A stretch of DNA of 39,395 bases from Acidimicrobiia bacterium. Lineage in GTDB: Bacteria; Actinomycetota; Acidimicrobiia; Acidimicrobiales; JANYDT01. Of this stretch, positions 12,529-30,700 are shown piece by piece. The stretch spans positions 1 through 39,395 of the forward strand of contig JAYUVJ010000093.1 in the NCBI GenBank assembly GCA_043754155.1. The letters run 5' to 3'. Position 1 is the first letter of the stretch; every line of letters starts with the position of its first letter. The notes under the pieces were generated by a model. That model ran no database searches and was not told where the DNA came from. It worked only from the letters and a program-made list of their open reading frames with translations. Both the position numbers and the translations under genes were made by a program.

Positions 12529-14343
12529 GTGAACGCTCCAGCTGAACGTATGCCCACCGCCGTTGAAGGTTTGAAGGCCGCTAGTCGTGGGCTTCTTGGC
12601 ACCCTGGTCGAAGAATTGGCCAACGACGCTCCGGATTTTACCGGGGATGCCACCAACCTCATCAAGTTCCACGGTTTCTACCAGCAGGATGACAGAGATA
12701 TCCGCCGTGAGAGGGCATCCAAGAAGCTGCCGCTCGAATACTCCTGCATGGTTCGTGCCAGCCTCCCCGGTGGCACCGTAACTGCCGATCAGTGGATTGC
12801 CATGGACAACCTGGCCTCCGAAATTGCCGACGGCTCGCTAAGAATCACCACCCGCCAAGGCATCCAGTTTCACTTCGTCCACAAGCCAGAGCTACGTTCA
12901 CTTATTAACACTCTGAACAAACACCTCGTCACTACCTTGGCAGCCTGTGGCGACGTAGTGCGTAACGTGATGGCCGATCCTGCACCCCACGCGGAGCGAG
13001 CCAACATCGATCTCGGACACTATGCACGCGAACTATCTGCTGCCTTTAAGCCGACGACGCGTTCTTACTATGACTTGTTCATTGATCATGAGTCGGCCGC
13101 ATCGGCAGTAGAAACGGCTCCTGAAATCGATGCGCTCTACGGAGAAACGTATTTGCCCCGCAAGTTCAAGATTGCTTTCGCGTGGCCCGGCGATAACTGC
13201 GTTGATCTGTACGCACATGATCTTGGCTTGATTCCGATTTTGTCCAACGGCCTCACCGGCGATGTGCAAGGTTGGATCGTGTTGGCCGGCGGCGGTATGG
13301 GCCAAAACCACGCCCGCGAAGGCGAAACCTATCCTCGTGTTGCCTCCATCATCGGCGCAGTTGGCGTGAACGATCTGCGTGCCGTGGGCGAAGAAGTCAT
13401 TGGCATCTTCCGTGATTTTGGTGACCGCACCGATCGTGGCCGAGCCCGCCTTAAGTACCTCATGGATGACCGCGGCCTGGATTGGTTCATCGCTGAAACC
13501 CGCACCCGCCTGGCCGCTCGTACGCAACCCGTTGAGCTGCAAGAAGCTCCCGCTCTACAACCTTGGGACGACTGCGATGAGCACCTGGGCTGGCACCCAC
13601 AAACCCTGGCTGCCGACGGAACCGGTGATACTTATTTCATTGGCATTCACGTTGAATCCGGTCGAGTGCGTGATGTCGCCGAAACCAGGGCCGACGAACA
13701 TCACGGCCAAGTTCGTACTGCCCTGCGAGCCATTGCTGATTCAGGCCTGGTTCCCGAGTTCCGTTTCACCGCCCGCCAAGATGTGCTGCTGTGTGGTGTG
13801 AACGTTTTTGATCGCATCAAGGTGGAAAATATTCTCCGTGCACATAGCGTTCCTCTCGCTCATCACTACACGCCAGTACGTCGCTTGGCTATGGCTTGCC
13901 CCGCACTCCCAACCTGTGGTCAGGCCCTCGCCGAAGCCGAACGGATCCTTCCGCGTCTCGCCGACGATGCCGCCAATGCACTCGATAAAGCTGGTATTGG
14001 CTCACAAGAACTTCGCATCAACGTCACCGGTTGCCCTAATGGTTGCGCACGTCCGTATACGTCGGAAGTCGGCCTGGTTGGTCGAGGTAAGCGCACGTAT
14101 GATCTTTACATCGGTGGTTCAGTAAGCGGGGACCGGTTGAACAAGCGTCTCGTCGCCGATATGCACGTCGATGATCTCGGCCCGGCCATGTCCACCCTGT
14201 TTGACCGTTACAGCCGTGAACGAAACAACGCCAAGGAAACCTTTGGTGACTGGTCGGCCCGTGTCGATCAAGCCGAGTTGCTGGGTTCACTACCGGCGCC
14301 AACCAAGAAGCGCCGTGCGACCAGCGCAGCTGATGCTGAGTAG
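12529..14343 (+). CDS. cysI: Assimilatory sulfite reductase hemoprotein (siroheme/[4Fe-4S]; CysI/Sir family)
   Basis: 604-aa ORF with a GTG start. LIKFHGFYQQDDRDIRRER parallels E. coli CysI RFHGMYQQDDRD. The cluster-binding motifs MACPALPTCGQALAEAER and INVTGCPNGCARPY (C-x5-C ... C-x3-C) are present. The electron donor (NADPH flavoprotein versus ferredoxin) cannot be decided here. Confidence 0.85.
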   Translation: MNAPAERMPTAVEGLKAASRGLLGTLVEELANDAPDFTGDATNLIKFHGFYQQDDRDIRRERASKKLPLEYSCMVRASLPGGTVTADQWIAMDNLASEIADGSLRITTRQGIQFHFVHKPELRSLINTLNKHLVTTLAACGDVVRNVMADPAPHAERANIDLGHYARELSAAFKPTTRSYYDLFIDHESAASAVETAPEIDALYGETYLPRKFKIAFAWPGDNCVDLYAHDLGLIPILSNGLTGDVQGWIVLAGGGMGQNHAREGETYPRVASIIGAVGVNDLRAVGEEVIGIFRDFGDRTDRGRARLKYLMDDRGLDWFIAETRTRLAARTQPVELQEAPALQPWDDCDEHLGWHPQTLAADGTGDTYFIGIHVESGRVRDVAETRADEHHGQVRTALRAIADSGLVPEFRFTARQDVLLCGVNVFDRIKVENILRAHSVPLAHHYTPVRRLAMACPALPTCGQALAEAERILPRLADDAANALDKAGIGSQELRINVTGCPNGCARPYTSEVGLVGRGKRTYDLYIGGSVSGDRLNKRLVADMHVDDLGPAMSTLFDRYSRERNNAKETFGDWSARVDQAELLGSLPAPTKKRRATSAADAE

Positions 14344-14432
14344 CTCAACGAGTCAACTAGGTTCACCTGCGAACACGCGCCAAGTCGGAACAGCGGTACC
14401 GTTGGCTCGATTCGACTGCCAGGCTGGTCACC

Positions 14433-15263
14433 ATGACTGGATCTAACGACTCCCCAGATTGGCGTGCACCAGTTCCGGTGGAAATACCGTCGGCCCAGCA
14501 ACCCATTTGGTTCCCGATTCTCCTTTCCCTTGGCGGACGGAAATGCGTAGTGGTGGGTGGCGGACCAATTGGTGCTCGCAAAGCCATCGGCCTTCGTGAT
14601 GCCGGCGCCGAAGTAGTTCTCGTGGCCACCAAACTCAGCCCCGAGGCCTTAGCGCTCACCGGTGTCACGCTCATCGAACGGCCCTACCTAAGCGCTGATT
14701 TGGAGGGTGCCTGGTTAGTGATCACGGCCGTCGACAATCAGGAAACCACCGCCCAAGTTGCCGTTGACGCAGCCGCTGCCCAAGTGTTCATGAACGCTTC
14801 GGATGACCCACCGTTTTGTACCTCGATTCTTCCGGCTACTCATCGCGACGGTGACGTAATCGTGGCCGTATCAACCGGCGGTGCCAGTCCGGCCGCAGCA
14901 TCGTGGATTCGTGACCGCATTGCTCACAGCCTGGGCTCCACTCCATCGCAGGTGGTGCGCCATGTCAGGGCGGTACGTGACCAGATTCGCCAAACCCGAA
15001 CCAGCGAAGGGCTGCCCTGGCGACCACTGATTTCCCAGGCTGCACAGGCGCTCGAAGCCCACGACCCAGACGAACTGCAACGTGCCACGACTGCCTGGAC
15101 CAACACACTGGGATATCGATGTGACCAGAGCGACTGCTCGGCACCATCATGTGGTTCACGCAACTGTGTGCGCTACGAAACAGCCCTGCAACAAGAAGTC
15201 CGTAGGTTGGAAGCACAAGCAGGACATAGCCGATTACCAGTCGAGGAGGCCACCACACCATGA
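14433..15263 (+). CDS. Precorrin-2 dehydrogenase / sirohydrochlorin ferrochelatase (CysG N-terminal domain / SirC-Met8 type) with a Cys-rich C-terminal extension
   Basis: 276-aa ORF with Rossmann motif GRKCVVVGGGPIGARKAIGLRDAGAEVVLVA, then VITAVDN..., then IVAVSTGGASPAAASWIR, typical of this family. The tail contains YRCDQSDCSAPSCGSRNCV. Confidence 0.8.
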   Translation: MTGSNDSPDWRAPVPVEIPSAQQPIWFPILLSLGGRKCVVVGGGPIGARKAIGLRDAGAEVVLVATKLSPEALALTGVTLIERPYLSADLEGAWLVITAVDNQETTAQVAVDAAAAQVFMNASDDPPFCTSILPATHRDGDVIVAVSTGGASPAAASWIRDRIAHSLGSTPSQVVRHVRAVRDQIRQTRTSEGLPWRPLISQAAQALEAHDPDELQRATTAWTNTLGYRCDQSDCSAPSCGSRNCVRYETALQQEVRRLEAQAGHSRLPVEEATTP

Positions 15264-16228
15264 TTGAGCTTACCGAACCCAACACCACTGCTCACGGTCT
15301 CCCTCGAGTGCTGGAAACCCCTGGCGATACAAAGCAAGGCGTTACAAAGCAAGGCGTTACCGTTACTAAACAAGGCGTTACAAAGCAAGGCGGTGCAAAG
15401 CAAGGCGGTGCAAAGCAAGGCGGGATCCTGGAGAGCACCGTAGATGCCAGGCTTGTCGAAGTTGCTGCCATTGATGCATCAACGGCCATAACCCCAGGCT
15501 TGACCTACCTTGTTGGAGCTGGGCCTGGCGATGTTGATCTCTTGACGGTTCGTGCCGTTCGAGTTTTGGGTTTGGCCGATGTGGTGTTGCATGATGCGCT
15601 CGTTGGCCCGGGCATCCTCGAACTTGCGCCTCTCGATGCCGAGTTGATTGATGTTGGTAAGCGTGCTGGCAATTCCTCGTCACAAGACATTATCTGTGCA
15701 CTAATGATTGAACTGGCTCGTCAGGGAAAAACCGTCGTTCGGCTCAAAGGTGGCGACCCGTTTGTGTTTGGCCGTGGCGGCGAAGAAATTGAGGCATTGC
15801 GCCAAGCCGGTCTCAACTACAGCGTTGTACCAGGTATCTCCTCATCGATTGCCGCCCCAGCAGCAGCAGGAATTCCCGTCACACACCGCAAGGTTTCTGC
15901 CGCCTACACCGTAGTAACAGGCCACCGAACCGAAGGTGCCGATCCTGTCGATTGGTCGGCACTAGCTAAAGTTGGCGGCACCATCGTGTTGTTGATGGCA
16001 GTCGGTCGACGTGGTGAAATAGCACGTGCGCTTATCGAAGGTGGGTTGCCTGGTACTACCCCAGTCGCTGCAATAACCAACGGTTCGCGAAACGACCAAA
16101 TCGATATTCGCACTACCCTCGCCGAGCTGCATCTCACCCCAGTTGAAGCCCCAGCAACGATTGTCGTCGGGGCCGTCGCCGCCATGGACCTCCGCGACCA
16201 AACGCGCTTCATTTCGACCGTCGGCTGA
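15260..16228 (+). CDS. cobA: Uroporphyrinogen-III C-methyltransferase (SUMT; CobA / CysG C-terminal domain)
   Basis: Motifs YLVGAGPGDVDLLTVRAVRVLGLADVVLHDALV, VVRLKGGDPFVFGRGGEE and VPGISSSIAAPAAAGIPVTHR. The ATG at 15260 overlaps the upstream stop (ATGA), but the conserved domain only begins near 15500, where an in-frame TTG gives (M)TYLVGAGPGD. The 5' 240 nt contain the 15-bp repeat, so the start is uncertain. Confidence 0.85.
   Translation: MIELTEPNTTAHGLPRVLETPGDTKQGVTKQGVTVTKQGVTKQGGAKQGGAKQGGILESTVDARLVEVAAIDASTAITPGLTYLVGAGPGDVDLLTVRAVRVLGLADVVLHDALVGPGILELAPLDAELIDVGKRAGNSSSQDIICALMIELARQGKTVVRLKGGDPFVFGRGGEEIEALRQAGLNYSVVPGISSSIAAPAAAGIPVTHRKVSAAYTVVTGHRTEGADPVDWSALAKVGGTIVLLMAVGRRGEIARALIEGGLPGTTPVAAITNGSRNDQIDIRTTLAELHLTPVEAPATIVVGAVAAMDLRDQTRFISTVG
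15331..15426 (+). repeat. 15-bp tandem repeat (aaagcaaggcgttac / aaagcaaggcggtgc) of about 6 copies plus a 6-nt partial insert
   Basis: Units at 15331, 15346, (cgttac 15361-15366), 15367, 15382, 15397 and 15412. In the cobA frame they read KQGVT-KQGVT-VT-KQGVT-KQGGA-KQGGA-KQGG. Confidence 0.95.
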
Positions 16229-16474
16229 AGCGAGAAAACCTACAGAGTTTGGTGCCCGCCAAGCGTATTGCAATGAGTTCGAACTAGCTGTTAGGTCTAG
16301 GCGTGTGGATGGCTTTGGGTAGTGGTTGCACAGAACCACCCACACGCTTGCCGGTCTCGGCGTACACAGGTCCTTGGGCGCACCACTTGACGTCAAAATC
16401 GTGAGCCATCCAAGGTCTTACAACATCGCAAAGGGGCGGAGATCGAAGGAACCCGTCCTAAGGGGTAACGCGAC

Positions 16475-16499
16475 AAACGCCGCCCGAAGGACGGCGTTT
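16475..16499. terminator. GC-rich hairpin, candidate bidirectional terminator between cobA and the MarR gene
   Basis: AAACGCCG (16475-16482) pairs with CGGCGTTT (16492-16499). The A/T runs on the two sides give a short U-tract on either strand. It lies 58 nt beyond the MarR stop. Confidence 0.5.
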
Positions 16500-16556
16500 G
16501 AATGGGTGCTTTGAGCGATCACCGACAGAATCGGCGGGAAGCAGCGGAGGAGGTGC

Positions 16557-17000
16557 TTAGGCCTCTACGCCTGCAAGTGCTGCGAGAGCCGAGGTGATGG
16601 CACCCTGGTTCTTGCCGGCAACTGCGAAGAAATCAGCATCGGCCTTGTCAACTTTTGGAAGGGCCTTACGTACAAGCGCACGACCAGCGGTGGTGAGAGT
16701 TACTCGCTGTGCACGCTTATCTTCGGCACTGGCGGCACGGGCAACAAGCTCACGGGCTTCGAGATTGCGAATTACTTGCGAGGTGGTCATTGGATCTACG
16801 CCTGAACGACCACTTACTTCTGCTTGTGAGAGGCCCTTGCGAGCATCGTCTGCTGCCAGTGTGGCGAGAAGCGCGTACTGCACGTGGGTGAGACCAAATG
16901 CCTCAAGTGCAGCGCGCTGGGCACGCTGCCAGGCATTGGTGGCACGCCACATAAGAAAGCCGGCACTTGACGGGGTGGCTACTGATCCTTGACCGCTCAT
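16557..17000 (-). CDS. MarR family transcriptional regulator
   Basis: Winged-helix region LTHVQYALLATLA...LSQAEVSGRSGVDPMTTSQVIRNLEARELVARAASAEDKRAQRVTLTTAGRAL. I place the start at ATG 17000 (MSGQGS...), which has AGGAG 10 nt upstream, rather than at the track start 17063. Confidence 0.85.
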   Translation of the reverse strand: MSGQGSVATPSSAGFLMWRATNAWQRAQRAALEAFGLTHVQYALLATLAADDARKGLSQAEVSGRSGVDPMTTSQVIRNLEARELVARAASAEDKRAQRVTLTTAGRALVRKALPKVDKADADFFAVAGKNQGAITSALAALAGVEA

Positions 17001-17444
17001 TTGAATGGTGCTCCTGAAGGTAGAGAGAGAAGGGACATTGTTTTTGCCAGCAGGTGCTTGCAAATCGGTACGACAGCATAGCGATAAATTCAGTATGCGT
17101 TCTTACGGCTGTTCTGGAATCTTTTTCGGCGCCGGAAGTGCAACAATTTTCTGGCGGCGAAAAACTAGTCGTGGAGCGGCAAGCTTGCAATCCAAAAGTG
17201 GGTGAGTGAACTACATGCGTGGAACTCGCAAAGCCTGCGCGCGCCCCAACGGACGACCGCCAACAGTGTTTGCCCAGCGTGTAAAGAGTATTGGCAAAGA
17301 AAGTGTGAGAAAGCTGAGGCCTTTCAATGGAAACCTACACAACAACTTTCGCCCACTAGCGTTCTCGTGTCTTCTTGGAAGAAGTTGGTTTTACTGAGCC
17401 AATTTCCCGATGCGTTCCCCCGCACTTTACGAAAGATCCTCCTC

Positions 17445-18224
17445 ATGCACTCTCCTCTGGCTGAATCTGTCTCGTCCACCCCAGTCACCCGTTCAGCATT
17501 ACGATGGCATCTTGCCGCCCCCTTGGGTTTGGTAACCGGGTGTGTCGCAACCGTGTGTGCGCTTATCGTAGGGAGTTTTTCGCCAGCGAGTGCGGCAAAG
17601 GTCCCAACTAAGCCGGCAAGTTCCACAACGATCACAACAAACTCCGCCCCTGGTTCATCCGTAGCTCCCGTGATCGCTTCTGTTCCCCCGGCTAAACCCA
17701 CTACCGATCTAAAGGGTGATATCGAGGCCAAGATTGCTTCTGTGCAACGAGAAGCTGCTCCAGGTTTGAAAGTGGGTGCGGTTTCTTGCCCAGCCACGTT
17801 GGCGGGGAAGAAGGCCAAGGTCCCGGTTGGAAATTACTCTTGCACCATCAGCATCGAGGGCGTACCCGCTCCCTATACGGTTATCGTTAAAGAGGGAGGT
17901 TCGCTGAAAGGTGGCGTGTTCCAGATCGCTCCCGCGAAAGCCATCATCGACATTTCTAAAATCGTTTCGTTTGTAAAGACCTCACTGGAGCCTGCCGACG
18001 CTGCTAAGGCAAAAATTTCGTGTGGAGCTGCAACAGTTGTGGTTGCCGATCCGGGAGCGCCGATCCTTTGCACGCTTACCCGTGGCAAAGCCGTTGAGAA
18101 GTTGGAATTCGAAATTCGCACCGTCAATGGTTTGGTCGCACTGAAAACCGGCGCTAAATCTGCTGTGCCTTCAACCATCCCTGCGGTTGTAGCTCCGTCA
18201 ACTATCGCCGTGCCCAAGTCATAA
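17445..18224 (+). CDS. Membrane-anchored/secreted protein with two DUF4333-like domains
   Basis: From ATG 17445 the protein has a hydrophobic anchor (LAAPLGLVTGCVATVCALIVGSF) and a Ser/Thr/Pro linker. Two modules follow, each with two Cys in the DUF4333 pattern (VSCPATLAGKKAKVPVGNYSCTISI... and ISCGAATVVVADPGAPILCTLTRG...). The track start at 17202 adds 81 implausible residues. Confidence 0.55.
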   Translation: MHSPLAESVSSTPVTRSALRWHLAAPLGLVTGCVATVCALIVGSFSPASAAKVPTKPASSTTITTNSAPGSSVAPVIASVPPAKPTTDLKGDIEAKIASVQREAAPGLKVGAVSCPATLAGKKAKVPVGNYSCTISIEGVPAPYTVIVKEGGSLKGGVFQIAPAKAIIDISKIVSFVKTSLEPADAAKAKISCGAATVVVADPGAPILCTLTRGKAVEKLEFEIRTVNGLVALKTGAKSAVPSTIPAVVAPSTIAVPKS

Positions 18225-18290
18225 GCGTTCCGCGTACTTAGGGTTGGCCTACTTTAACGTTGGTTCGTCGCTCCTCCAGATCCTTCTTGT

Positions 18291-19142
18291 TTAACCGTCG
18301 ACTCTCTCTTCGTTGACGTTGAGACCTTCAACCTGTTCGAGTACTTCGAGGTGATCGTTGTGCGAGTGAGTAAATCCCAGCGAACGTTCCTTTCGCACCG
18401 CCTCGCTCGACCGTAGGGCCACGATGTACGCGCGCCGATAGGAATCGGTGGAGTAGTTCCCGCCCGATCCGTGGAGGACACCCTCGTTGTGGACGGTGAT
18501 ATCGCCTCGAGCAATCGGTACTGCCGTCATCTGGTCACCGGCGCGAAGATCCGTCACCAGCGTGTGGCTTTTCGTGCGGTCCTCATGCAGCGGCCGGTGA
18601 GGACGGACTGGTTCGAGATGTGATCCGGCGAGGAACTGCATGCAGCCGTTCTCTTCCGTGGAGTCTTCAACAGCCAACCAACACGTGGCGGTTCGGCGAT
18701 CGTCGGTATCGATCCAATACGCCTGATCCTGATGCCAACCAAAAATCGCTTCAGGCCGGTTAGGGCTCTTGGCTAGAAGCTGATCGAAATCAATAGCCAT
18801 ACCTTCACCGCAGAGTTGATCGGCAATGGATTGTGCCCGTTGCTCGAAGATGTTGCCCACCCAGGCGGGGTAATAGCGCCTGGGCAGCATCACGTTGACT
18901 ATGGCGTATCCGGTGGGATCGGTGCCGTGTTCGCCGGTAGTCATATCGTTGAGGTCCTTACCGTCAACAGCGATTTCGCGGCGAAGAAATGCGTTGTAAA
19001 TCGTCTCAATCTCGTCAACTTCTTTGGGCGATAACACTCCTCGTAAGTGCACATACCCTCGCTTTGTGAAAGCGTCTATCTCTTCTGGGCTAACGAGGTA
19101 GCTTGCACCTTGGCGACGATTTTCAGAAGTAGTGCTGCTCAT
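18291..19142 (-). CDS. Phytanoyl-CoA dioxygenase (PhyH) family Fe(II)/2-oxoglutarate oxygenase
   Basis: 283-aa ORF. It has WHQDQAYW (His-x-Asp), a distal His in ITVHNEGVLHGSGGN, and family-typical length. Confidence 0.75.
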   Translation of the reverse strand: MSSTTSENRRQGASYLVSPEEIDAFTKRGYVHLRGVLSPKEVDEIETIYNAFLRREIAVDGKDLNDMTTGEHGTDPTGYAIVNVMLPRRYYPAWVGNIFEQRAQSIADQLCGEGMAIDFDQLLAKSPNRPEAIFGWHQDQAYWIDTDDRRTATCWLAVEDSTEENGCMQFLAGSHLEPVRPHRPLHEDRTKSHTLVTDLRAGDQMTAVPIARGDITVHNEGVLHGSGGNYSTDSYRRAYIVALRSSEAVRKERSLGFTHSHNDHLEVLEQVEGLNVNEERVDG

Positions 19143-19224
19143 GTCGAACCTCCTGTGTTGCTAACGATTTCGATGAAGATGAAGTTGGGCGGCATTTCAC
19201 AGCCGGTTGTTGCGATGTGGGTGC

Positions 19225-19265
19225 AAAAATAAAACTGGCGTTGAGGGAAGTCCCCCAACGCCAGT
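19225..19265 (-). terminator. Rho-independent terminator after the gpx gene
   Basis: On the minus strand ACTGGCGTTG (19265-19256) pairs with CAACGCCAGT (19243-19234) in a 10-bp perfect stem. TTTTATTTTT follows. Confidence 0.75.
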
Positions 19266-19311
19266 CTTTCATTCGGTGAAACCTTCAGCAGCGGTTGCCG
19301 AACCAATAGTT

Positions 19312-19785
19312 TCAGAGGTACTTGGCAACCTCAACCTGAAGCTCTTCGGGTGTGGACATGGGGGAGAAGCGGGCGACAGCCTTCCCTTCCTTGTCAACGA
19401 TGAACTTGGCGAAGTTCCACTTAATTTCAGCGGATTCTTCTTCGCCCGGTTGTTCATCTTTGAGCCACTTGTAAAGGTCGCAGGCATCGTCGCCGTTGAC
19501 TTCGATTTTGGAGAACATCGGGAAGGCCACGTCGTACTTCGTTTTGGCGAATTCGGCGATCTCTGCATCGGTGCCGGGCTCTTGGGCGCCGAACTGGTTA
19601 CAAGGAAATCCGAGGACGGTTACGCCTTCGGTTGTTTCATGAAGCGCACGCAGACCTGCGTACTGAGGCGTGAGGCCTCAAGCGGAAGCGACGTTGACGA
19701 TCAGGCAAACCTGACCGGCATACGCCGAAAGTGCCACTGCTTCGCCCGTTATGGACGTCATGGTGAAGTCGGAGAGAGTAGTCAT
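19312..19785 (-). CDS. gpx: Glutathione peroxidase with in-frame TGA at the catalytic position (predicted selenocysteine; transl_except at 19678-19680)
   Basis: ATG 19785 has GAGGG 4 nt upstream. Translation: MTTLSDFTMTSITGEAVALSAYAGQVCLIVNVASA-[TGA]-GLTPQYAGLRALHETTEGVTVLGFPCNQFGAQEPGTDAEIAEFAKTKYDVAFPMFSKIEVNG...IKWNFAKFIVDKEGKAVARF.... There is a single frame throughout (157 codons) and the TGA is codon 36. The track lists only the last 72 aa. The alternative reading is a recent nonsense pseudogene. Confidence 0.7.
19646..19663 (-). promoter_or_regulatory. Candidate bacterial SECIS hairpin
   Basis: The minus-strand RNA GUACGCA-GGUC-UGCGUGC forms a 7-bp stem (one G-U pair) with a GGUC loop and starts 14 nt after the UGA. 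Its core GCAGGUCUGC equals the apical core of the E. coli fdhF SECIS as I recall it. Confidence 0.55.
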
Positions 19786-19923
19786 AAGACCCTCGACGGT
19801 AGTTGGTTCCGCAAGGCAATGTCACACATTGAGGCCTACGCTGCATTTAGGACGACCATGTAGGACCCTTACAACCCTTACCTCGACGGACAGCCAACCC
19901 GGAGAGCACCGTTCTAGGAATCG

Positions 19924-29611: not shown

Positions 29612-30700
29612 ATGTCAAAGATCGTCGCTACACTTTCGGGTGTGGTGACGATTCACGAACGCAAGCCTGCGGTGGGAAGTGCGCGCGTTCACGGGGCGCT
29701 CTGTTTCGGGAGTACCGACGCAAGTTTCGCGAACGGTTCACGGCACGAAGAAGGATGCGCGGCGCATTGCTGCTGAGTTGACGGTTGCACCGTCGGGTCG
29801 TGCCGCTGGTCGTTCGGTGTCGGATGTGTTGGAGGCGTGGGTGCGCAAGCACGATGCAACTTGGGCACCGGCATCGCGTCGTGATCAGTTGTCGCGTGTG
29901 GCGCGGATCAACGGCGATCGGATCGCTCGTTTGTCGGTTGCGCGGTTGACGATCGAGGATGTCGAGCGTTGGCATGCGCGCTTACGAGACGAGGGATTGG
30001 CCGACGTCTCGATTCGGAACATTCATGGCGTGTTGCGTGCGGCGTTAACGCAGGCGGTTCGGTGGGGTTGGATTTCGCGCAACGTTGCGTCGCTGGCGGA
30101 GTTGTCGTCTCGCAAGGTTGTGGCTCGTGGGGTGATGAGTGCTTCGGAGATTCGTGCAGTGATAGCTGCCGGTGATGCGATCGGTTCTGAGGTTGGGTTG
30201 ATGCTGCGGATTGCGGCGGTGACTGGAGCGCGTCGTGCGGAGCTGGCGGCGTTGCAGTGGGCGGACGTGGTGGACGGTGTGTTGACGATTGACTCAGCGA
30301 TTGAGATTGATCGCCGTCGCGGAAAGGTGGCGTTGGCTGATGCGCCGACGAAGACTGCAAATCAAAGGCGACTAACGCTTGATGCGGCGACGTTGGTTGT
30401 CGTTGAGCGCGAGCGGGTGGAACGTGAGGAGTTCGGCCCGTGGATGTTCACGGTCGGCGACGTGCCCCCGAACCCGGATCGCATTGGCTATTGGTGGCGG
30501 ATCGCCCGTGAGAAGTCGGGCATCAAGGTGAAGTGGCGTCTCCACGACTTGCGTCACTGGTCGGCGTCGGCGGCAATCGCCGCGGGCCACGACATCAAGA
30601 CCGTTGCGGATCGTTTGGGTTGCAAGTCTTACTTTTGATACGCGAGGCGTTGACCGGGATAAGTCTGATCGTCTGGCGATCCGGCGGGCGCTCGCCGTTG
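29612..30700 (+). pseudogene. Decayed tyrosine recombinase (phage-type integrase)
   Basis: The main ORF (29679-30638) has the core-binding and catalytic regions (LRIAAVTGARRAELAALQWADV; WRLHDLRHWSASAAIAAGHDIKTVADRLG). It stops at ...GCKSYF*, before the catalytic Tyr. The expected tail continues in the +1 frame as SLTFDTRGVDRDKSDRLAIRRAL, in which the Tyr position of the usual T-L-D-T-Y-G/A-H motif reads Arg. At the 5' end the motif WEVRAFTGRSVSGVPTQVSRTVHGTKKDA is preceded by an in-frame TGA (29646), and a plausible N-terminus (MSKIVATLSGVVTIHERKPAVGS, ATG 29612) lies in another frame. Confidence 0.7.

Follow-up and report, generated by a model that had tools for sequence, protein, structure and literature searches.

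The DNA analysed here, 39,395 nucleotides (nt) of contig JAYUVJ010000093.1 from an Acidimicrobiia bacterium (the whole stretch is called the window below), carries on its minus strand a glutathione peroxidase (GPx) gene in which the catalytic codon is an in-frame UGA, followed by a hairpin that begins 14 nt later. We consider it highly probable that this 18-nt hairpin is a bacterial selenocysteine insertion sequence (SECIS) in the coding region of a selenocysteine (Sec)-containing GPx of an Acidimicrobiia-like actinobacterium. The features of the locus are as follows.

19785..19312, minus strand: glutathione peroxidase gene of 157 codons, including one in-frame UGA, with its own TGA stop at 19314-19312
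19790..19794, minus strand: Shine-Dalgarno-like GAGGG, 4 nt 5' of the ATG (19785-19783), a putative assignment from sequence reading alone
19680-19678, minus strand: in-frame UGA, codon 36, at the catalytic cysteine (Cys)/Sec position in the motif NVASA-U-GLTPQY
Minus strand, between the UGA and the SECIS hairpin: 14-nt spacer GGCCUCACGCCUCA, read directly
19663-19646, minus strand: predicted SECIS hairpin GUACGCA-GGUC-UGCGUGC, with 5' arm 19663-19657, loop 19656-19653 and 3' arm 19652-19646
19664..19680, minus strand: spacer hairpin UGAGGC-CUCAC-GCCUCA, which includes the UGA (nt +1..+17) and is present in the minimum free energy (MFE) structure

The gpx gene and the hairpin downstream of its internal UGA

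When Cys was put in for the TGA, the open reading frame (ORF) 19785..19312 matched the GSHPx family (PF00255) in Pfam with E=2.3e-39, and GPx homologues of 155-159 amino acids (aa) found in a protein database search aligned with 99-100% of the window protein. The translation reads NVASA-U-GLT and continues with the FPCNQFGAQEPG and KWNFAKF motifs. The GSHPx domain, Sec at the peroxidatic position and the NQFG and WNF motifs together place it in the selenoprotein GPx family (PF00255, UxxT). The terminal TGA of gpx (19314-19312) has no such hairpin, and in this one gene TGA serves as both Sec codon and terminator. Since the hairpin occurs only after the internal TGA, context must distinguish the two.

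The minus strand from 19680 to 19642 reads UGA GGCCUCACGCCUCA GUACGCA GGUC UGCGUGC GCUU, exactly the RNA string given in the initial annotation of this DNA, which had proposed a SECIS resembling that of Escherichia coli fdhF. In RNAfold, the MFE structure and the centroid agree on the proposed 7-bp stem capped by a GGUC tetraloop. The MFE of the isolated 18-mer is -8.5 kcal/mol (z=-2.83), a stability equalled by 2 of 200 shuffled sequences. Counted from the U of UGA as +1, the hairpin spans nt +18..+35 and its loop +25..+28, where the initial annotation had placed it, and it codes for part of Q-Y-A-G-L-R-A. We searched both strands of the window for GGUC hairpins of at least 5 bp with a TGA no more than 40 nt 5' of the loop, and this hairpin was the only one. 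No second SECIS-like element was found in the window, either as GCAGGTCTGC with at most one mismatch or as any GGUC hairpin with an upstream TGA.

Conservation of the hairpin and of its base pairing

Homologous genes were collected by a tblastn-confirmed scan of one genome per species, which yielded 80 loci. At the column of the window UGA, TGA is found in 51 orthologues, and TGC or TGT in 30 homologues. The closest locus (L001) comes from an Acidimicrobiia metagenome-assembled genome (MAG); its protein is 91% identical at the aa level, and valS and gpx are syntenic with the window at 84-90% nucleotide identity. All 51 TGA orthologues in these species-representative genomes, which belong to Acidimicrobiia, Gammaproteobacteria and Myxococcota, carry the hairpin at the same offset (+18..+35), and the 30 Cys homologues lack it. 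Over the corresponding 18 nt, the MFE averages -1.0 kcal/mol in Cys genes versus -8.2 kcal/mol in Sec genes. In this sample the element is associated with TGA only, and its position is fixed.

A second set of genes was obtained from metagenomes with the degenerate pattern N-x-A-S-x-TGA-G-x-T-x-Q-Y, of which the hairpin was not a part. The scan returned 120 stretches; three were false positives (L091, L142 and L162), leaving 117 real TGA-GPx genes. The window-type hairpin (class A) is present in 96 of these 117, and the following smaller groups were distinguished.

Class B, 4 genes (L087, L129, L149, L154): hairpin CCUGC-AGUU-GCAGG, peptide QYLQLQ
Class C, 3 genes (L117, L118, L141): hairpin CUCC-GGUCU-GGAG, peptide QYSGLE
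Eukaryote-like TGA-GPx, 12 genes: L094, L104, L114, L127, L132, L138, L169, L174, L177, L183, L185, L191

In classes B and C the stem sequence differs, with the hairpin at the window offset and the loop G-U at about +26..+28. The 12 eukaryote-like genes have a ...LNAL... (NAL) motif and no hairpin following the UGA, and in several of them the ORF breaks just past CNQFG, a break of the kind that an intron produces. Their origin is probably eukaryotic (algal or protist), and a SECIS within the 3' untranslated region (3'-UTR) would be expected for them. Eukaryotic GPx SECIS elements lie in the 3'-UTR, contain a kink-turn and depend on SBP2; thus the enzyme family and the recoded codon are shared with the window gene, whereas the element and its location are wholly different. 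Lacking a local hairpin, these 12 genes act as a natural negative control. Two further TGA-GPx genes, L083 and L106, have no recognisable hairpin at +18..+35, with a possible one at about +33..+51 in L083; they may be eukaryotic, use another type of SECIS or contain a sequencing error. A comparison with GPx homologues that carry TGA had been suggested as a check in the initial annotation, and its outcome was positive in the genomes and the metagenomes alike. The hairpin is present in the TGA orthologues and covaries there; absence or lack of covariation had been named as the result that would refute a SECIS.

These data bear on an alternative in which translation truly stops at the TGA, or the TGA stems from pseudogene decay or a sequencing error, with the hairpin there by chance. 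Gene callers do split or truncate such genes, and the mechanical ORF list of the window divides gpx into a 35-aa fragment and a truncated ORF. Moreover, the protein database search (with U replaced by C) returned, among the matches listed, only full-length Cys forms, with no more than 68% identity. As the listed matches are all Cys forms, this search is of no use for finding TGA orthologues, a purpose for which the DNA-level scans worked. However, TGA occupies the same codon in 51 species-level genomes and in about 100 metagenome contigs, with an intact in-frame GPx domain downstream, and the ORF downstream of the TGA is conserved at the protein level. On the comparative data this alternative appears effectively refuted, and we give it practically no chance of being correct.

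For the analysis of base pairing, genome and metagenome sequences were pooled into 131 distinct sequences. In the genome set alone, 98.9% of cells are paired and one pair shows compensatory changes; in the pooled set 98% of stem cells are paired. Pair 19-34 is UA in 94 sequences and UG in 37 (the window has UG), pair 21-32 is CG in 128, UA in 2 and UG in 1, and pair 22-31 is GC in 122, AU in 7 and GU in 2. The loop is GGUC in 115 sequences, GGGU in 15 and GGCU in 1. Pairs 21-32 and 22-31 are never unpaired, which was matched by 4 and 0 of 10000 column shuffles, respectively, a significance that is overstated in that column shuffles ignore relatedness. The covariance test proposed at the outset thus found compensatory changes in these two stem pairs. 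At 22-31, GCA is replaced by ACA (Ala to Thr) together with CGU by UGU (Arg to Cys), while at 21-32 CGU is replaced by CAU (Arg to His) together with the synonymous change of UAC to UAU. Since these stem changes alter the protein, the peptide gives way to RNA pairing, i.e., the RNA overrides the protein. In the loop variant GCC-GGG-UUG, Ala-Gly-Leu is retained via three synonymous changes, and the loop GU is kept one position further 3'.

One could also suppose that the nucleotide conservation reflects selection on the peptide QYAGLR(A/T) alone, with no RNA structure involved, given that conservation of QY and GL extends to all GPx proteins, the Cys forms included. Nevertheless, third positions are near-invariant only inside the hairpin and only in TGA genes. 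The third-codon-position entropy of the Sec group is 0-0.39 bit in codons +5..+10 versus 1.3-1.9 bit in flanking codons, and the same codons in Cys homologues have 1.0-1.6 bit. Synonymous sites of Sec-gpx are saturated except within the hairpin, where purifying selection acts on the RNA in addition to the protein. The peptide itself is QYAGLR in Sec genes versus QY[EAKT]GL[EQ] in Cys homologues, the latter using E/K/A/T and E/Q where Sec genes fix A and R. The paired substitutions described above (Thr for Ala together with Cys for Arg, and His for Arg together with UAU for UAC) restore pairing, and the three synonymous changes of the GCC-GGG-UUG variant keep the loop G-U. We therefore find selection on the peptide alone extremely improbable.

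The hairpin is also an inverted repeat in DNA, and this raises the idea of a protein-binding palindrome or of an intragenic transcription terminator or attenuator. Against this stand the G-U wobbles (U19-G34 in 37 of 131 sequences, 22-31, and U-G at 21-32), which are C-A mismatches on the other strand. As wobble pairs form on the sense strand only, they point to RNA structure and not to a DNA palindrome. In addition, there is no U-tract 3' of the hairpin, and the link to TGA at a fixed distance is strict. A palindrome or terminator is thus disfavoured, with next to no probability left to it. Taken together, the readings as pseudogene or sequencing error, as coding constraint only and as DNA palindrome were rejected on comparative, synonymous-site and wobble evidence.

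Comparison with known SECIS elements and the case for Sec insertion

The fdhF sequence given in the initial annotation (TGACACGGCCCATCGGTTGCAGGTCTGCACC...) proved to be correct: searched as TGACACGGCCCATCGGTTGCAGGTCTGCACCAATCGGTCGGTAATG, it has matches of at least 99% identity in 5413 E. coli genome records, and those listed all lie within fdhF. The E. coli element is a 17-nt minihelix (nt 15-31, the minimal upper stem-loop) located 11 nt from the UGA and containing a bulged U17, above a lower stem in which nt 4-14 pair with nt 32-41; its conserved positions are U17, G23 and U24, and SelB binds at U17 and G23 (PMC8659212). Both the fdhF SECIS and the window hairpin lie within the coding region, directly 3' of the Sec UGA. 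They have an identical apex of 10 nt (GCAGGUCUGC), as had been claimed, which includes the GGUC loop with the equivalents of G23 and U24. The loop lies at +22..+25 in fdhF and at +25..+28 in the window, i.e., one codon further, again as initially stated. Three differences are, however, clear. The stem of the window hairpin is a perfect 7-bp helix without a bulge, and neither it nor any one of 131 distinct relatives contains a bulged U, which bears out a caveat raised at the start. The spacer between the UGA and the helix measures 14 nt instead of 11 nt and is invariant in length across the Sec-GPx family of the window. Finally, in place of the fdhF lower stem, the window MFE structure folds the spacer on itself, with no pairing to the 3' flank. 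Of the hallmarks of a minimal fdhF-type SECIS, the window hairpin has the GGUC loop, while the bulged U17, the 11-nt spacer and the lower stem are missing. The description 'fdhF-like' therefore holds for the shared apical 10 nt and not for these three features, owing to which the fit is to the general bacterial SECIS consensus and not to the strict fdhF type.

The bacterial SECIS consensus model is reportedly that of bSECISearch, by Zhang and Gladyshev. The bSECIS criteria are a loop of 3-9 nt, a stem of 4-16 bp, a G in the first two loop positions (G[G|U]), a UGA-to-loop distance of 16-37 nt and an MFE of no more than -7.5 kcal/mol (PMC13188914 Fig. 2). The window hairpin, which begins 14 nt after a UGA at the catalytic Cys column, agrees in each respect, with a 4-nt loop, a 7-bp stem, GGUC at the loop, 21 nt from the A of UGA to the first loop nucleotide and -8.5 kcal/mol for the 18-mer; the structure is moreover conserved and covarying in TGA orthologues and missing from Cys homologues. 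Because this consensus is permissive, the fit alone is weak evidence, and it is the comparative data that carry weight. A more general description gives the bacterial SECIS a stem of 6-8 bp and, about 20 nt downstream of the UGA, a conserved G in the loop, and places it near the mRNA entrance of the ribosome (PMC4605307); the window hairpin, whose stem has 7 bp and whose first loop G lies 22 nt past the UGA, likewise matches.

Sec-containing GPx genes with a bacterial SECIS have been reported since 2005, so that the window adds a further case and not a new kind of element. Five sequences were found in the Sargasso Sea, where Fig. 7 of the paper shows a bacterial GPx SECIS (AACY01190440) (PMC1088965), 40 were found in the Global Ocean Sampling (GOS) data (PMC2398784), and one Sec-GPx is that of Treponema denticola (PMC1794560). 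These and the window gene belong to the same family (COG0386/PF00255, UxxT) and share a catalytic in-frame UGA with a bacterial-type SECIS directly downstream. Unlike the marine-metagenome and T. denticola genes, the window gene comes from an Acidimicrobiia-like genome, and our literature search found no published description of Sec-GPx in Acidimicrobiia. What we find mildly noteworthy is the near-invariance of the 18-mer across three phyla, the fdhF apex without a bulged U and the codon bias in the spacer (see below).

By analogy with E. coli and Moorella, the hairpin would act in four steps. The C-terminal winged-helix (WH) domains of SelB, carrying GTP and Sec-tRNASec, would bind the GGUC loop and the upper stem. 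With the UGA in the A site, the base of the hairpin, 14 nt downstream, would then sit just outside the mRNA entrance, and the tethered SelB would deliver Sec-tRNASec ahead of termination by RF2. The terminal TGA of gpx, having no hairpin, would work as a stop. SelB binding and selenium dependence of the window hairpin are inferred from these two systems, and fdhF and the window presumably share the SelB-tethering mechanism. In the Aquifex SelB ribosome model, WH3-4 holds the SECIS near the mRNA entrance and the WH2-WH3 hinge takes up differences in spacing (PMC4605307). The complex of Moorella thermoacetica SelB WH3-4 with SECIS RNA (PDB 1WSU/2UWM) offers another system for comparison.

Several points weigh against a SECIS function. 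The covariation derives from few, probably related sequences, as the stem is nearly invariant and the shuffles ignore phylogeny. To our knowledge, the bacterial GPx SECIS elements are all known from prediction alone. GPX-like proteins in bacteria are listed as 'predicted with high confidence' (PMC13188914). In E. coli, mutation of U17 or G23 abolishes UGA readthrough (PMC8659212), and the window hairpin is devoid of a bulged U. A search with the Rfam SECIS models gave no match, either in the whole window at the gathering threshold or in 19560-19760 at E up to 10; this null result is uninformative since bacterial SECIS elements are poorly modelled in Rfam, as the Actinomarina preprint also states. 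Lastly, ARAGORN detected no tRNA-Sec in the window or in the 200 loci, and Pfam found no selA, selB or selD among 20 window ORFs, with about 6 ORFs of at least 150 aa at 32.5-39.3 kb outside the scan. None of selA, selB, selC and selD was seen in the scanned part of the 39-kb window or in the flanks of the 200 loci. A different Acidimicrobiia order is reported to have Sec machinery (bioRxiv 10.64898/2026.04.03.716425), and we assume that the window organism is Sec-competent and has selA, selB, selC and selD.

The lack of Sec machinery in the scanned part of the window speaks for another reading, in which the hairpin stimulates selenium-independent readthrough of the UGA, by near-cognate Trp or Cys insertion, and not SelB-mediated Sec insertion. 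Nonetheless, in fdhF a loop of identical sequence binds SelB, the UGA stands at the redox-active Cys/Sec site, and the family matches published bacterial selenoprotein GPx (PMC1088965, PMC2398784). We regard such readthrough as very improbable. The initial reading of the hairpin as a SECIS for a Sec-GPx is thus supported by its presence in TGA orthologues, its absence from Cys homologues, the compensatory changes and the match to fdhF.

Spacer hairpin, gene history and genomic neighbourhood

The UGA itself lies in the small hairpin UGAGGC-CUCAC-GCCUCA, whose DNA sequence TGAGGCCTCA is a perfect palindrome. Both the hairpin and the palindrome had been pointed out in the initial annotation, in which the hairpin was called a competitor of the SECIS. 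That part did not hold: the spacer hairpin occupies nt 1-17 and the SECIS nt 18-35, they do not overlap, and both are present in the MFE structure. A role as competitor was rejected on these grounds, as no arms are shared. A role as a universal part of the element was rejected as well, since nt 1-17 are only 73% paired across orthologues and their covariation is no better than in shuffles. In Acidimicrobiia the spacer hairpin and the SECIS helix adjoin without a gap. While the UGA occupies the A site, the 14-nt spacer is mostly inside or at the mouth of the ribosome and unfoldable.

Codon usage in the spacer is nevertheless biased. The third base of the Pro codon at +4 (19668-19666) would pair with the A of UGA, and this codon is CCU in 55 of 104 Sec genes (53%) versus 93 of 1018 (9%) other Pro codons of the same genes, with CCG depleted (5% vs 45%). 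The CCU bias is seen in both major clades (Actinomycetota, 15/17 vs 6/142; Gammaproteobacteria, 7/19 vs 21/193). Cys homologues mostly use CCG at this position, close to the background frequency, and pairing would there be with the C of UGC. Nt 1-17 fold at -4.29 kcal/mol versus -2.40 kcal/mol for synonymous-codon nulls; for unique 17-mers the values are -3.07 and -2.36 kcal/mol, and 0 of 500 nulls were as low. The spacer hairpin is therefore lineage-enriched and not universal, and the codon bias hints at weak selection. The signal weakly suggests selection for some local structure and does not make the spacer hairpin an established part of the SECIS. Two bolder proposals would make the spacer hairpin a second selected SECIS element (a fold insulator or pre-decoding pause) and the bulge-less 18-nt hairpin, in view of its near-invariance across three phyla and its fdhF apex, a near-universal, high-affinity SelB ligand that works across species without the bulged U needed in E. 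coli; these are speculative and, in our estimate, unlikely.

In a neighbour-joining tree, which was made without bootstrap and gives a rough result, all Sec-GPx genes fall into one clade, apart from other Cys-GPx genes, and within it the sequences from Acidimicrobiia and from Gammaproteobacteria are for the most part grouped. Nested in the Sec clade are two Cys genes, L036 (3001-3465) and L039 (3001-3447). In L036, an Ilumatobacteraceae MAG, the Cys-GPx gene lies directly upstream of a tandem Sec-GPx gene (Sec codon at ~3573, motif from 3558). Both Cys genes keep decayed copies of the hairpin, GUACACGGGUCUGGUUGC and GUACACAGGCCUGCGUAC. These relics are consistent with Sec-to-Cys reversion, and remnant SECIS-like structures following Sec-to-Cys conversion have been described earlier (PMC1794560).

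Among the genes identified in the window are valS, a member of the class-I Cys-tRNA-synthetase family, a UPF0182 gene, a gene for a DivIVA-domain protein, a sulfite/nitrite reductase gene with sirohaem genes, and others. The following were noted around gpx.

12529-16228, plus strand: NIR_SIR sulfite/nitrite reductase, sirohaem synthase-like gene (NAD_binding_7/Sirohm_synth_M) and tetrapyrrole methylase
17202-18224: ORF with no Pfam match and no counterpart in L001
18291-19142: PhyH-family dioxygenase gene, with no counterpart in L001
24998-26590, minus strand: 530-aa protein of the class-I Cys-tRNA-synthetase family
29679-30638, plus strand: ORF with a match to the phage-integrase family (E=5e-10); it lies downstream of a gene for an acyl-CoA dehydrogenase

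The cluster at 12529-16228 looks like an assimilatory sulfite or nitrite reduction module, and the integrase ORF could mark the edge of a mobile element. Synteny with L001 covers valS, gpx and the region 16468-17226 and is broken in between (17227-19313). In Actinomycetota, the mycothiol ligase MshC belongs to the class-I Cys-tRNA-synthetase family. Should the organism rely on mycothiol and not on glutathione, the physiological reductant of this 'GPx' would more likely be a thioredoxin-type protein.

The known mechanism of Sec insertion is left unchanged by the window. What it does provide is one SECIS, conserved very tightly (consensus CAGUACGCAGGUCUGCGUAC, +16..+35), that is shared by a monophyletic clade of Sec-GPx genes from Acidimicrobiia, Gammaproteobacteria and Myxococcota, and this consensus is a simple and specific search pattern. 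The contrast of QYAGLR in Sec genes with QY[EAKT]GL[EQ] in Cys genes makes the family a clean example of a protein sequence dictated by RNA. For annotation, without the Sec reading gpx is called as a 35-aa fragment and a truncated ORF, while the full gene most probably encodes a 157-aa selenoenzyme.

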